Shown here piece by piece: positions 25,458 to 41,291 of a stretch of 64,000 nucleotides of DNA. Numbering within the stretch: position 1 is the stretch's first letter; every line of letters begins with the position of its first letter. The position numbers were made by a program, and so were the translations under genes. Origin of the DNA: an uncultured Hormoscilla sp. (GTDB lineage Bacteria > Cyanobacteriota > Cyanobacteriia > Cyanobacteriales > Desertifilaceae); NCBI GenBank assembly GCA_963921275.4, contig OZ001293.3, positions 3,456,001 through 3,520,000 on the forward strand, read 5' to 3'. The notes under the pieces are model-generated. The model searched no databases and had not been told where the DNA came from. It saw only the letters and a program-made list of their open reading frames with translations.

Positions 25458-26857
25458 AGAAATAGAACTGGGAAAAGATGTCAGAGAAGGCTTCCCAGAA
25501 CTATTCGGGTTAGAGAAGTCCCTGGAAGAGGTCATGTCAGGACAGCAGATGAGTTTTGAATTACAATGCATTTCCCGTCAGGGAGAGCGGGACTCTCCGG
25601 TCTATTTTGACATCTTCGTGCTGAAAAACGATAGAGAAGGGGGGCTGATGGTCTTATTTAATGATGTTACAGAAAACATGGAGATGAAACAAAAATTAGT
25701 CCAAAGTGCCAACCGAGCTAATTTATTACTGAGTACCATTACAGCTAATCAAAATTACATAGAAAAACTGATCCGGTCAATGGCAGATGCTTTATTAGTG
25801 ACCAGTAGATCGGGAAATATCAAAACAGTCAATCAAGCAGCGATCGGGATGTTTGGCTATAGCGAAAAGGAATTACTTAGACAGCCGATTTCCTCGCTCA
25901 TTACTGACCGGAAATTTCTCCACAAAGTCAGCTATAGTGAAGGGGAAGAGCAATATGTAGAAGTGCTTTGTCGGAAAAAAACAGGAGAAGAAATTTCCGT
26001 AGCTTTTTCTTGTGCTATCATAGACAGTGACATAGCCGACTTAAAAAACTTGCTCTATATCGGTCGAGACATCACCGAACGCAAGCGGATGGAAGCAGCA
26101 TTACAACAGGCCAACAGACAACTCACCATCTCAGTCAAGCAATTAGAACAGCGCAACCGGGAGATGCAGCTACTAACGGAACTGTCTCAGTTACTGCAAG
26201 CATGCTTCACCTGTCGGAAGCCTACGGGGTCATTGCCAAAAAATGTCACCCTTGTTTCCCGATTCAGTTGGTGAAGTATTTGCGCTCTGTGCCGAAAAAA
26301 ACCTCATTGAGGTGGTGGCCACTTGGGACAAAGCACCGATCTCCAACCAGAAGCAGTTTTCCCTGAAGGGGTGGTGCTCTCAAGATCGGCATGGAACAAA
26401 TGAAGAACTGACAAAATTGCTCTGTCAACATCTACACCCATCATCCGATGGTCGGCAACATTGCTGCTTACCGATGACGATGCAGAAAGAATCCATTGGT
26501 CTATTATATTTGAGTTCCCTAGAGTCGGGGCAATTAACCCCCGACACTGAGCGGTTAGCAGTCAGCGTAGCCAAACACATTACCCTAGCATTGGCAAACT
26601 TGAGACTGCGGGAAACCCTGCGCACCCGCTGCACGGGAAATCCAAAGAGCCTCTAGTTCCCAACATTCTTTAGGAATGATCCTGCTGGATGTTGACCATT
26701 TTAAGCGATTTAATGACACCTTCGGTCACCTGGGGATACCGTGCTACGAGAAGTGGGGCAGTTTTTGAATCGGAATATCCGGGGTAAAGACTTGGCTTGT
26801 CGCTACGGCGGTGAGGAGTTTATCGTCATCATTCCCGAAGCAACCCTAAATTATACC

Positions 26858-26970
26858 GGCGTTGCACAATCACGGGATGATGAGCATAGTTGCAGAAGTT
26901 TTAAACTTAGACTACAAGCTATTTTCAGTTATGTGCAAAAAATAGTATCATCCCCAAAATGTACAACGCC
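26858..26970. mobile_element. 113-bp MITE (GGCGTTG TIRs, 8-bp TSD; IS1595-like ends)
   Basis: GGCGTTGCACA...TGTACAACGCC flanked by ATTATACC on both sides. Homolog at 33711-33828. Confidence 0.85.
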
Positions 26971-27425
26971 ATTATACCATACAACGGGTACATCTCAGTT
27001 AGGCGATGAGTAATTATACTTAGTGCTTGTCTCCCTCAAAACGGTACATAATTTAGGCACTGTTGACCACCCTTGACCCATGAACTCCCAAAAGCAGGCT
27101 GAACTCCAGCAACATCTTGACGCGATTGCCGCGATTCTCTACCAGGAAGCCGACCCCACTGAACTCACCACCCTTGAAGGCATTGAGAAAAACGTTCGTG
27201 CGCTTGCCCAAGAACACGTCTGGCCTCAACTAGGAATTTTTTTATCAACACGGCGACTTCCCGCCGCACCGGAAAACAGCGCACCCTGACCAGTATCCTG
27301 GGCAAACTAACCCTCACCACTGCTCAAGCCCAACAACTGCAAGTTAAACCGGGAACTCGTTGGAGTCCGTATGTGGAAAAATGTTGTTGGGTCGTCAGTG
27401 CCAATGCCTCTTACCAGAGAGCCGA

Positions 27426-29168
27426 TTTTTCGGGCCGTCCGCGGACCGTACAAGATCTCGCGATGCTGACTGGGGTGAGCATCTCCCACAGTACGCTCCA
27501 ACGCTTTGTTCAACGAGAGGACTGGTCTGAGGTAGTGCGATTCGTTCCGGCATAAGCCAGTAGGTGAAAGTCGGGTCTGGCTCTATCAGCCAGATAACTC
27601 TGGTTATCATGGGGGTTAAATTCCCTTTCCCCAGGTACGGGGGTCGAGGGTACTACCGGTCGGAGGTGCTACGGAGCCACATCGCCGTGGTACCTCCCGA
27701 GGACTTAAATGTAGGATAACTGGCAGCCTAAGCCGGTGACGCCGCTAGGAAAGATGCTAATGGTTAGAACAAGCGAACCTATGTAAACCTCGTTAACCAG
27801 AACCAGCGGAAGAAGGCTTATGCGCTTGCCCAAAAAGGGAAATGGTAGTTAGTATTAGCTCTTGCCTCTGGCTAATAACGTACTCAAAGAACTCCCGGGG
27901 TATAGTAGGAACCTAAAAGCATCGTGAAATGATACTAGGGAACGAAGTAACCTCTCGTGAGCTATCCCCATTTGGACAAGTTAGATGTAAAGCACAAGCC
28001 ACGAAGAAGAAGGATGTCCTAAGAAGCTAACGCCCAGGGTAATGCCTGTGGATATGCAGACGTAGGACGGATATGGTAAGACACCCTTGGGAAAAGTAAC
28101 CTTAATGTCACAGAACTAGGGAGAAATTCCGAAAGTACGAATTTTGGATTCAAATCTTAGCCAGGTAAAGTTCAGAGCCCTTACGAAAAGCGGAAAGCAG
28201 AATGGGGAAGATGTTAGTAAAGAGCGGCGAGTATGGTTTGCTGAACTATCCTCCGCGAACCTTCCGCAGCTCAGTACTTAAACGGTCCAATAGGATTGAC
28301 CATAAGGGGTAAAATTTCAAAGGGTAAGGGACAACGGGGGTAACCCCCAGTAATCCTACTGATGACAACAGCTTACCAACCAGTAGCCGTGTGCGGTTCC
28401 AGTCGCTCTTCAGGTTTCGCTCTTGGAGGGTTGGGGAGTGATTCCCAGCTCGACCCCGACCGAGATAGCTGAACCGATTCAGGAGCTCAGCTTGGATGGC
28501 GGCATGATTCGCCTTCGTACCGATTTTTCGGGCCGTCCGCGGACCGTGGAGGGTCAACCTGGTGAGTGGCGAGAATACAAAGCCTTAAATGTCCATGAGC
28601 AAGGCAGTGTGGCTTTCTTCAAGGATAATCAAGGGCTGCTTGAGTGGGTGAATGCCCAGCCCCTCGGGGCGCAGTTCACCGGTCTCGGAGATGGTCATGA
28701 TGGGGTGTGGAACATTTTCAGTGGTATCGGGACACCAGAACAACGTATCGAAGTGCTCGATTGGTATCACCTAATGGAAAATGCCAATAAGGTGCAAGGG
28801 ACACCGGCTCAATCCGATTTTTCGGGCCGTCCGCGGACCGTGCAGATCCGATTTTTCGGGCCGTCCGCGGACCGTGCACTCCTGTGGCGAGGGGAGACCC
28901 AGAGGGCGATTAGTTATCTGCGCCAACAGCAATGTCGGGGAGCCACAGGGTTGATCAACTACTTGAAGCACCATCAGACGCGCATCATTGACTACCAGGC
29001 TAGCCCTCCTGGCGTCGGGCCGCTGCGCGAACGGGCAGGCAGCTCGGCACTCGATTGGCTCTGGTCGGGTTGAGTCCCTGGTGAAACAAATTGGGTTAAG
29101 GGTGAAATTACCGGGGGCACAATGGCGAGCCGAGAATGTGCCGATTTTTCGGGCCGTCCGCGGACCGT
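27426..29168 (+). repeat. Five identical 24-bp inserts TTTTTCGGGCCGTCCGCGGACCGT
   Basis: At 27426-27449, 28524-28547, 28818-28841, 28852-28875 and 29145-29168, each directly after CCGA. Confidence 0.95.
27535..28461 (+). ncRNA. ORF-less group II intron (927 nt), DV degenerate
   Basis: Starts GTGCG and ends CTCGACCCCGACC. EBS1 TGCCTC (27863-27868) pairs with exon GAGGTA. Removal restores WSEV|EIAEPI. Confidence 0.9.
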
Positions 29169-29642
29169 AGGTGTTGAAGCATCGCTGTGCCTACCTGAAT
29201 GGCGCATTAGTTGCCTAATCAGACTCAGTAAATCCACTTTTGCTGAGTAAATATACTCATCGCCTAACTGAGATGCACCCCATACAACGAGCCTCTTATC
29301 TGCGATCGGGAATCAAGTCTCTGCGGATCGAGCATGACGGTCAGCTGCTGGGTAGCATCACCAGTTCCTTTGGCGTCGCTTGCTTCCCAGAACACGGTCA
29401 AACCCTACAGGCAGTCATCGCAGCCGCTGATGCGACACTTTACCGCGCTAAAGCCTCCGGGCGCGATCGGGTGATCTCAGCTTGAATATAACCATAAGTA
29501 GTCATCTATCCAATTAACAATTTTCAATTGGCAATTAACAATTTTCAATTTTCAATCCGATTAGTTGTATCGACGGGTACAAAAACAGATTTCCGACTGC
29601 GCTAAAGTCATAATAAATCGATGTAGTTCAGGCTACATAACC

Positions 29643-35795: not shown

Positions 35796-38700
35796 TTATT
35801 TTTCCGTCAGCTTCCAGACTCCATCCCAAGTTTCATTGGGTGGTTGGTCTTCAAACAGCATACAACGCTGTATGTGTAATTTAGCCGCCTTATTCTTCGG
35901 ATCGATGTCCAGAACTGCTTGAAACTCACCCTGGGCGTTCTCAAACGCTTTCTTCGCCTTATCCGTAAACTGCTGCTTGGCTAGCCCGATCAGTTTCCAG
36001 ATCAGAGCTTGTGACATTTCCTTGGCCTCATCGGATAACATCTGTTGGTCTTTTTCTTTAGCGCAGAACTGAAGAAGCTTAGCGGTCAACAGCTTCTTGA
36101 TCTCCCGGGGGGGAGTAAGCTTGATCTCCCGATCTGCCAAGGACTTTGTCGTGTCTCCGGAGTAGTGCGAATAGCGCTCTCCGGAGACACGGCGGGCTTC
36201 TGAAGAAGGCATCTGCTTGAGTTCCTCTAATGACAGCCGCTTGATAGCATTGGACCCTAAGATTTGCTCTAGTTGAGCTAATGACAGCTGCGAGATCGTA
36301 TCCCGTAAAATTTTATCCTTACGATCGGCAAACTCCTTCTCCTCGGACTCTGATACCTCTTCTGGCAGCTGTTCTAACAAAGATATCATCTCGTCTGAGG
36401 ACAATTTTTCCCTTGCCGGTTGTAGGTAATACTCGCGCCCTTTGTGATAGTGGTCGATCGCCTTCTGCTTTTCCTCTGGAATCGGTCGAGCCAGCGTGCT
36501 CCTGCCTGGCTGGATCCCCACCAGTTCGTATATTCTCACCGGTTCGCTTTTTCCCTTCACGGTAATAAAGTCCAGCTCCCTGACTATTAGCCGCCTCGCA
36601 TAGGGTTTATAAGTATTTTCGCTGATGACTATGTCTGTGCCATATTGCTTGCTCGTCCCTTCCAGACGAGAGGCCAGATTGACACCATCACCAATAGAAG
36701 TCAGTTCCATGCGTTTGCTGGAGCCAATATTGCCACTCACGACTTCATCGGTATGGATCCCCATGCCAATGCCGATCGCCATCTTACCCTCTGCAATCCG
36801 AGCCTCATTGAATTTCTCCAATCGCTGGCGCATGGCGATCGCCGTTTGCATCGCATACCAGGCATGATCGTTGAGGGGCGCTGGCGATCCAAACACCGCC
36901 ATCAGGGCGTCACCTATATATTTATCAAGAGTGCCCCCGTAGTGCAAGACCGCGTCCACCATTTCTTCAAAATAGCTGTTGAGCATCACCACCACTTCTT
37001 CGGCTTGCATTTTTTCCGTCAATGTGGTATAGCTGCGAATATCTGAAAACAGCACGGAGACATGCTTGCGCTTGCCTCCCAACCCCGTATCGCCACTTGC
37101 TAGCAATGCCTCTGCCACTTCTGGCGTCATGTAACGATACATCAGATTTTTGACCTGCTTCTCATCGGAGATATCTTCCATGACCACTAATGCCCCGTTT
37201 ACTTTGGTGGGGTCGCTAGCATCGGACATTGAGTTAATCGATAGATTTATACTCTGCTGTACCGTTCCGGAAAAATAGGAGTCTTTAGACAACAAAGTTT
37301 GATCTGGGTAATACTGTTGCCGTTCTTTTTCATCTAGGGGTGAGAGGGCTGCGTCAAACCATTTGCCAAAATCACCTTCCTTGAGTTTCAGCAAGTCCCG
37401 CATCAACTTACCCTCTATGAATTCGTTGGAGCCATACCCTAATAATTGCTTGGCCGATTCGTTGGCGGCCATAACGATACCCTTTTTATCCGTGGAGATC
37501 ACCCCATTGGTCAAGCTGCGCAGGATATCCTTCTGAATTTGCTCCTGCTGCTTCACTTCCGCAAACAGCTTCGCATTTTGCAGGGCTACACCGGCTTGAA
37601 TGTTAAACGCCTGCATGAATTCTTGGTCAGAACGATTAAAGCTCGCCTTCCACTGTTCCGGGGCTTTGGGCCAATCATTTGGGTCATAGGGCGGGTACTC
37701 TCCCTGTTTCTTCTTGTTGATTAACTGCGTCACCCCGATCAACTCGTCATTGGCGTTAAACACGGGCATGCACAACATACTGCAAGTGCGATAGCCTGTC
37801 TTCTGATCCGTTTGTTTGGAAGTTTCCGAACGCCCATCTTCATACAGGTCAAAGGGAATCAGCAGGGGCTGATGAGATTCCGCCACCATGCCTGCGAAGC
37901 CCGCTGTCCTGGGGATGCGGATTTCTGTTAACTTGCCTGCGATCGGGATTTTCGTCCACAGCTCATCTTTTTCGTGGTCTATCAGCCACAGGGTGCTGCG
38001 ATCAGCGTTCATCAGTTCCTTGGCCTGATCCATCACCTTTTTCAGGGTGTCTTCTAAGTCCAAACTGCTCTTGGACAGGGAGTTTACCGCGTTCATCAGG
38101 GCTGCCGCCGCCCGTTGTTTCTGGGTTGCTGCATAGAATGATTTAGAGGACTCCAGTATGAGGAGAATGGATGGGGCAAACTCTCTAAAAACTTGTTCGT
38201 CTTCTGATGTGAACCCCTCTATATCGATTTTTTCTGCCAATTCTGCGTAGGGGTACTTATCGTGCTTTAATTTATTTATCAGTTGCACAACCGCCACCAA
38301 CTCTCCTGTCTCCTCATTCAACAGGGGCATCGCTAGCATGGTGTAGGTGCGGTAGTTGTTTTTTTTGTCAAATTCCTTGGCCGCCACTGAACGGGGATCA
38401 TCATAAAAGTCGTAGGGGATATTGACCACTTTTTTCCATGTGGCCACTTCTCCGGCAATCCCTTTATCTGCTGGAATTCTAATTTCTAGAGCATTCCCAT
38501 TGTCATCCTTGGCTACAATTGTAAACAGTTCATTTTTTTCTTCATCGAACAGAAAAATGCTGCTGCGATCTGTATTTAGCAGTTCCCCCGTTTTCATGGT
38601 GATGGAACGCAACATCTCATCCAGAATTGCGTCAAACACCTGATTTTCCAGATCCAGCATCGACAGGGTTTGATTGACCGTTTTTAGTTTATCTTCTACG

Positions 38701-41019: not shown

Positions 41020-41291
41020 GTCAATTTTCCAACGGTCCTACCGTTCCGGAAAAATCGGACTGCGACTGGTCAGCGGGACAATTCGCGGTCGGTAGTCCGA
41101 TTGGATCTAGTACGCGGCTTCTATTGTACCACATTTTTGGCCAATTATCTCTGACTTCAGTCTAACTTCTGTACCGCTAATTTCCGCAGATCCCCAAAGT
41201 TGAAGAAAAAGTTAAGCTGCTCATTGTATTGAACATTAGCAACTTGTTACAATTGTTAACAATTGTAGCTGGCAGAGTAGATAAATATCCC

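Follow-up and report, generated by a model that had tools for sequence, protein, structure and literature searches.

Why should one gene carry the same short sequence five times, always behind the same four bases? The question arises in the window, the whole 64,000-nt stretch of Hormoscilla DNA that was analyzed, in which a 24-nt element (A24) occurs as five exact copies, all on the plus strand and all 3′ of CCGA, within a single insertion sequence (IS); 100 shuffles of the sequence gave 0 matches.

Five identical inserts in one ISKra4 copy

Insert 1 (27426..27449) splits CCGA^AC (the caret marking the junction), insert 2 (28524..28547) splits CCGA^GG, insert 3 (28818..28841) and insert 4 (28852..28875, 10 bases past insert 3) each split CCGA^GC, and insert 5 (29145..29168) splits CCGA^AG; together they occupy all three codon phases of the transposase gene. 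At sites 1, 2, 4, and 5, the IS copy of the congener G004 reads CCGA|N, with no base gained or lost and hence no target duplication, and site 3 is likewise empty in G004, its nearest empty allele having GGAGA in place of the TCCGA of the window. Site 1 is also empty in outgroups, and in five genomes of other genera, seven ISKra4 copies lack an insert at every A24 site that they cover. The filled state is also present in contigs assembled from reads: one such contig (X1, from study P1, which may be the source of the assembly) spans inserts 2 and 3 with no difference from the window, and another from a second study (X6, record 30) matches 28507-28745 with 0 differences, extending only 17 letters to the left of insert 2. 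The artefact that the preliminary description would have read from an absence in the reads is thereby refuted, and its account of five identical, precise, SDR-like 24-mers behind CCGA was confirmed: the five A24 inserts are real micro-elements without target duplication. As a mobile element, A24 is a non-coding hairpin whose insertion behind YCGA is exact and leaves its target unduplicated.

The same description called the element frame-preserving. All five inserts do keep the frame, but insert 5 creates CCG TAG, an in-frame stop 13 codons short of the gene end, and the frame is lost at a sister insert of 29 nt. This sister, E29 (29002..29030, minus strand), is a module with a one-T tail and a CGC-GCA-GCG mini-hairpin inside the same ISKra4 copy; it adds a net 31 bases relative to G004 (29 nt and 2 extra flank bases) and causes a frameshift of the transposase ahead of the GSGRVES motif. 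A second IS copy in G004 carries a different 27-nt insert, 13 bases past site 1.

The host element (26986..29280, plus strand) has 22-bp inverted ends and is bounded by an 8-bp target duplication, CATACAAC, with its left copy at 26978..26985 and its right copy at 29281..29288 (both plus strand). The pieces of its broken transposase match the profile NF033572 with E values of 4e-25 and 4e-14, each piece falling under the whole-protein cut-off. By transposase family, inverted ends, and target duplication, the host is an ISKra4 element. It interrupts a GGDEF-type (diguanylate cyclase-like) reading frame, recognized by translated motifs only (26741-27013 and 29240-29485 of the window), and genes near the IS also appear broken.

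A genome-wide search for exact matches, as the preliminary description had proposed, identified 53 copies of A24, of which 51 follow CCGA and 2 follow CTGA; 48 sit in copies of the window's ISKra4 and 5 elsewhere. Both ends are kept in 12 IS copies of the genome; 11 of these are each bounded by their own exact 8-bp duplication, and in 1 the duplication is offset by one base. Of the 60 A24 sites in these copies, 54 are present and all of those are filled, the other 6 being gone through internal deletions. With every present site filled in all 12 IS copies, the five insertions must have happened once, in a founder, before the IS spread; most exact A24 copies lie in IS DNA because the IS itself was duplicated. 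The founder's transposase was dead, given the stop in insert 5 and the E29 frameshift; with separate 8-bp duplications around the copies, the IS likely spread with a transposase from elsewhere, the dead copies probably being moved by the enzyme of another copy. Of other ISKra4 elements, only fragments with 28-60% identity were seen.

An ORF-less 927-bp insert that starts GTGCG (27535..28461, plus strand) is present in 4 of the 12 IS copies, and a joint in a read-derived contig skips the 927 bases; the insert is likely a group II intron. Rfam returned no match for it, and three Rfam group II intron matches lie elsewhere in the window. Hundreds of stretches in the genome are related to this insert, which together with 93 reverse transcriptase (RT) matches amounts to an unusually large group II intron load. 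There are also repeats of ~450 bp (for example C1 1295-1731, and hundreds more) that differ little among themselves and match the front half of the intron-like insert at 81%, possibly a short intron-derived mobile element.

A family of T-tailed hairpins and its target

A24 shares a general plan with B15, C15, and D50, consisting of five T residues (T5), a C-G-closed hairpin, and one last base, either T or A; members with T5, hairpin, and final T have sizes of 15, 24, and 50 nt. A24, with 74 copies at 30 sites when variants are included, folds into T5, a 7-pair stem with a G.A mismatch, a TCCG loop, and T (-7.2 kcal/mol as DNA), and in a subfamily the G.A of the stem is swapped to A.G. B15 (CCG-GNA-CGG) is represented by 209 copies at 171 independent sites and C15 (CGC-GNA-GCG, as in TTTTT-CGC-GCA-GCG-T) by 113 copies at 85 independent sites; a further hairpin variant reads CGG-GAA-CCG. 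D50, found at 10 sites, has a perfect 20-bp stem; its building block is a GTAG-type REP of the same family as the repeats around a RAYT gene in this genome. Forms of 32 and 42 nt exist too, and the stems of D32 and D50 measure 10 to 20 bp.

Further members lie elsewhere in the window. What had been described as a diverged relative of A24 at 41032-41058 turned out to be a separate 15-mer, TTTTTCCGGAACGGT, followed by ordinary flank; it is a B15 (TTTTT-CCG-GAA-CGG-T; 41040..41054, minus strand) after CCGA. A second B15 (37261..37275, minus strand) follows CCTA, and G24 (52456..52479, plus strand), a double mini-hairpin sister with a one-T tail, follows GCGA. G24 and F22 are composed of GTAG or GCAG, two bases, and a short stem.

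Across the family, the shape of the hairpin is maintained while its sequence changes, with paired changes in the stems. Among one-change variants, the middle loop base is altered in 21 of 43 for B15 and in 11 of 35 for C15 (with the last base altered in 18 more), and the loop A is changed in none from either class; loops vary only as G-N-A. C15 contains GCGNAGC, which excerpts of PMC13037366 describe as an unusually stable, nuclease-resistant DNA hairpin whose tested RNA counterpart is much weaker; a related mini-hairpin is described there as binding SSB poorly. Since the G-N-A loop rule is a signature of DNA mini-hairpins, it suggests that the element acts as DNA.

When the congeners were compared with this genome without bias as to element, clean insertions were listed (188 repeats retained out of 390 indels), and extra modules with a single leading T were found at the same site (22, 23, 24, and 29 nt, with one or two mini-hairpins). 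The T-ending copies among the 188 have precise ends, with an ambiguity of 0, and the A-ending form has 4-5 bases of ambiguity. Several GTAG-type REP families in the list are polymorphic as well, and so is a family of 42-66 nt (CGATG...CATCG hairpin, often 45 nt) that lands 5′ of GA and hence follows another target rule. At C1:4740092 and two other loci (L066 and L078), D50 and A24 occur as double-tailed T5-hairpin-A5 copies, and the D50 loop is found in either orientation; palindrome correction is the likely source of the double tails and the flipped loops.

The target of the family is Y-C-G-A, the cut, and then R-S or TCG. In the 171 B15 sites, position -4 is C in 160, -3 is C or T in 166, -2 is G in 168, and -1 is A in all 171, and position +1 is never C; CCGA accounts for 132 of these sites, CTGA is second with 22, and CGGA occurs once. 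D50 follows CCGA at 9 of its 10 sites, and the sister modules with a one-T tail have the same target, YCGA^(R-S or TCG). The final base of the element is tied to the site, as A-ending A24 precedes TC in 76 of 85 cases and T-ending A24 in 2 of 50. Outside TC sites, T-ending C15 follows GCGA in 22 of 36 cases, part of which are within one repeated element.

Filled and empty alleles differ at -3 in 15 of 76 pairs and at -4 in 10 of 76, compared with 151 and 55, respectively, of 2,113 controls, an excess that is significant in bulk. Two or more flank changes were observed in 8 of the 76 filled/empty pairs (2 of the 8 look misaligned or hold another insert) and in 30 of the 2,113 controls. The dozen bases upstream of the inserts are about twice as variable as controls, and for three sites with rewritten flanks that were compared in more genomes, the direction of change was not polarized.

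Spread, age, and local bursts

A24 is present in all four congeners (12, 34, 178, and 66 copies), at different places, and in 0 of 36 further genomes; a scan limited to one genome for each species returned at least 110 A24 stretches, and the 80 matches listed were all from Hormoscilla. Congener loci amounting to ~2 Mb, picked for holding elements, were compared with this genome. Of 115 congener A24 insertions looked up here, 40 sites were empty, 6 filled, 14 unclear, and 55 without ortholog, and for 183 congener B15 insertions the corresponding counts were 49, 46, 9, and 79. The mostly empty orthologous sites indicate that A24 is young and lineage-specific, and the many filled ones that B15 is partly older. 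Hundreds of family copies differ between Hormoscilla genomes.

Of 301 genomes of the order, 11 contain B15: Hormoscilla has 29-175 copies, and six genomes from three other genera have 1-2 copies, which sit in ordinary genes after CCGA or CTGA. The general T5/GNA pattern has 297 matches in this genome and at most 9 in any of 400 other genomes of the phylum, and loosening the tail pattern brought out no further high-copy genome among the 400. The one-T module occurs in 134 of the 301 genomes and reaches 130-342 copies, after CYGW, in five genomes of two other genera. Viral contigs contained no A24 and no B15. B15-like modules with GTA or GCA loops were seen at 1-9 copies in ordinary genes of seven genomes from three other genera (loci L105-L142); one of these genomes (G224) has three such modules within 5 kb, and in G033 a form with a TTTAT tail lies nested within a different repeat. 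The genome studied here has a 6.88-Mb main contig with 47% G+C and 4,738 HIP1 sites. Contig C3 of the assembly (31.4 kb, 17.6% G+C) is unlike the rest and is probably foreign to Hormoscilla.

With its inserts removed, the window's IS has 8 CCGA on the sense strand, and all 5 that are followed by R-S are filled; the opposite strand has 2 CCGA^RS sites, both empty. Of the 9,859 CCGA^RS sites that lie outside the IS, 3 hold a T-ending A24, and genome-wide the filled share is about 0.04%. With the R-S rule borrowed from B15 sites, the chance of 5 of 7 sites being filled is p ~2e-16, or 1e-9 at the B15 rate. The local serial copying proposed in the preliminary description agrees with these counts, and the 15-mers cluster too: B15 has 22 neighbors at <1 kb versus 3.5 expected (maximum of 11 in 2,000 simulations), C15 has 6 versus 0.6 expected, and in six hand-picked clusters 15-33% of CCGA^RS sites are filled versus 0.9% genome-wide. 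The window's IS is an extreme case of a local burst, and clustering is general to the family. Neighbors at <20 kb share their orientation in 18 of 22 cases for C15 (p 0.002) and in 38 of 80 for B15 (p 0.74). No genome-wide strand pattern of the elements was found; GC skew was too weak to place replication arms.

Among single-flank B15 copies, 71 of 156 are in long ORFs, as are 51% of control sites, which, with the IS copies attributable to duplication of the IS, argues against the preference for mobile DNA that had been suggested. B15 copies in genes comprise 32 sense and 39 antisense insertions (control 414:349), and this lack of sense bias speaks against RNA-level or transcription-linked targeting. 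The reading frame stays open through every one of the 106 inserts located in long ORFs, and many proteins are lengthened in this way by 5 or 8 residues.

Movement of the elements and comparison with known systems

For the movement of the family, we favor single-strand cut-and-join by an HUH enzyme (Y1/RAYT-type) acting in trans, to which we assign a probability of about 0.5. The proposal arises because the insertion pattern matches that of IS200/IS605 TnpA and TnpA-REP, which, in the part of PMC8266576 available to us, insert folded single strands precisely 3′ of a short motif without duplication. The element would move as folded single-stranded DNA, cut out and joined by a nuclease that would recognize shape (the T tail, the C-G-closed stem, and the final T or A) and not sequence. 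One nick would fall behind CGA in the target and the other behind the last T of the element, and the released piece would be closed as a dumbbell with a T6 loop; an excised REPIN is described in passages of PMC3116915 as a hairpin with a single-stranded 5′ tail. The piece could then be ligated into DNA that is exposed as a single strand, for instance at a replication gap, and copy number would grow since the other strand, or displacement synthesis, would retain the donor. A TnpA 3′-OH may also prime replacement synthesis, according to an excerpt of PMC8266576. In the founder IS, one exposed strand would have been struck in a short burst until all preferred sites were used.

A home-built Y1 profile applied to the 56,660 six-frame ORFs of the genome gave 7 matches, comprising one intact-looking RAYT (C1:2007194-2007730) and several broken Y1 genes; this RAYT and the RAYT-flanking REP family carried by D50 are points in favor of an HUH enzyme. 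Y1 loci framed by family modules numbered 0 of 20 in five Hormoscilla genomes and 0 of 40 further loci, mostly from other genera and including five high-copy genomes. The RAYT tied to the REP of D50 does not track the elements, being present in 8 of 27 genomes that have them versus 7 of 23 that lack them, and three congeners yielded no copy of it. A search for an autonomous partner among longer elements starting YGA^TTT returned only D50. One of the five genomes rich in the one-T module has a RAYT gene with an array of ~26 REP units of 37 bases on one side. Against an HUH enzyme stand the lack of GTAG in A24 and B15, the junctions A^T and T^R (or A^T), and the orientation of neighbors, which is shared only in C15 and not in B15. 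To our knowledge, 15 bases is far under any known Y1 substrate. TnpA-REP cleavage is known to occur at C|T or CA and to be guided by GTAG, as stated in the accessible text of PMC8266576. The assembled contigs over the stretch, from which rare forms drop out, show no joint skipping a 24-mer or 15-mer.

The -3/-4 differences between alleles are not predicted by clean strand transfer, and rival explanations are therefore kept. The best surviving of them, which we regard as unlikely, is host recombination or repair, in which a nick or gap at a CGA-type site (the HIP1 core CGATCG, or the site of a methylation-linked nuclease) would be repaired with a nuclease-resistant single-stranded hairpin, copied or annealed from an element elsewhere, at times with changes to the adjacent bases. 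The surplus of -3/-4 flank differences and the 2 extra flank bases that arrived with E29 fit such a process, as does the concentration of A-ending A24 before TC, a form that resembles crossing over in a shared CGAT core; in excerpts of PMC4390886, SDR5 is likewise precise in HIP1, with directed cutting at HIP1 proposed for it. The T-ending copies, however, have no core in common with the target, and between copies the left flank shows no linkage to the right (57 pairs versus 51.6 expected, p 0.24), which leaves the carry-over of donor flanks unsupported; the three rewritten sites could not be polarized, and the upstream bases are about twice as variable as controls in any case.

That a reverse transcriptase copies a short RNA (the hairpin, then A5) onto a nicked CGA end, like target-primed retroposition and by way of group II intron enzymes, seems to us distinctly unlikely. 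The RT matches and intron-like repeats of this genome are in keeping with it, and the opposite strand, hairpin-AAAAA-TCGG, might anneal to a primer ending in CCGA-3′; CTGA, which would involve a wobble, is the second commonest site. Nevertheless, the G-N-A loop rule fits DNA on the T-first strand, the tail has a fixed and not a variable length, and sister modules with a single T hit the same target; moreover, the element load does not follow RT number among draft genomes, which may collapse repeats (the congener with 178 A24 copies has 8 RT matches).

Targeting by pairing of the element's own TCGG with CCGA, joined to a preference for IS DNA, was the version of the preliminary description, and it is now very improbable. 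A24 is able to pair in this way, and the GCGA excess of T-ending C15 is what pairing by TCGC predicts, but B15 starts TTTTTCCGG, which predicts CGGA, and D50 starts TTTTTCTG, which predicts CAGA, and both use CCGA without complementary bases. The -5 base gave no signal of guide pairing, being independent of the A24 G/A swap, and many copies lie in ordinary long ORFs. An adapter, assembly, or polishing artefact, which has nothing in its favor beyond the oddness of five identical inserts, is practically inconceivable given the read-derived contigs of two studies, the decaying inheritance through IS copies, and four other assemblies with elements at different places and some orthologous sites in common.

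We raise tentatively that a shape-reading single-strand DNA integrase is widespread in filamentous cyanobacteria, inserting any C-G-closed, T-tailed hairpin of at least 15 bases scar-free into YCGA, in bursts that can saturate one exposed strand. If this were true, the hairpins would be about the smallest replicating DNA known, SDRs would be explained, and short tags could be inserted scar-free with the integrase as a natural tool. For the question of how repeats of the SDR type move, which dates from 2008, the present family supplies exact substrates, with both junctions, a two-sided target, a variable hairpin part, and many filled/empty pairs; its 15-base members, full target rule, and saturated strand make the enzyme directly testable. 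The one-T sisters, with their high copy numbers in two other genera, may permit work in cells of culturable strains.

We found no paper on these Hormoscilla elements, which subscription papers and supplements may describe; a Hormoscilla genome paper (PMC6520454) contains no passage on such repeats or insertions. The family resembles the REP/REPIN-RAYT systems, as presented in excerpts of PMC3116915, PMC8266576, and PMC3733652, in its short hairpins, clustering, and single-stranded 5′ tail, in the stem mismatch of A24, which is like the REP bulge, and in the GTAG-type REP inside D50 and the GTAG of G24. It differs from what those excerpts describe in that a GTAG tag is missing from A24 and B15, cutting is at junctions other than C|T, the units are single and not doublets, copies are often within genes, and none of the RAYT genes searched is framed by the modules. 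Non-autonomous IS200/IS605 elements are similar in the lack of a target duplication, the insertion 3′ of a motif of 4-5 bases, and an orientation set by the target; in contrast to their left- and right-end subterminal hairpins, each with a guide that pairs with its cleavage site, the family has one hairpin, no guide in the element predicts the target, and no cognate autonomous IS was found. Unlike MITEs, which have the terminal inverted repeats of an IS and a target duplication, the family has asymmetric ends and duplicates nothing.

By description, the closest likeness is to SDR1-8 of Nostoc punctiforme and its relatives, above all SDR5, reportedly described by Elhai et al. in 2008 in Genome Res 18:1484. 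SDRs range from 21 to 27 nt, can be nested, and form hairpins with paired changes (SDR4-6). Both groups are tiny dispersed repeats of HIP1-rich cyanobacteria with precise insertion, and A24 has the size (24 nt), the dispersal with empty sites, and the structure with compensatory changes of an SDR. B15 and C15, at 15 nt, and D50 lie outside the 21-27 nt range, and the host genus is non-heterocystous. SDR5, with 21 nt, inserts between bases 3 and 4 of HIP1 in the available parts of PMC4390886 and PMC13756078, and its function is still given as unknown in the text seen of the latter, a 2026 paper. A-ending A24 and C15 at CGA^TCG fit HIP1 position 3/4, whereas a HIP1-only rule does not describe the T-ending copies, most of which are at CCGA^R-S and seldom before TC. 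By this analogy, the family appears to work like the Nostoc SDRs.
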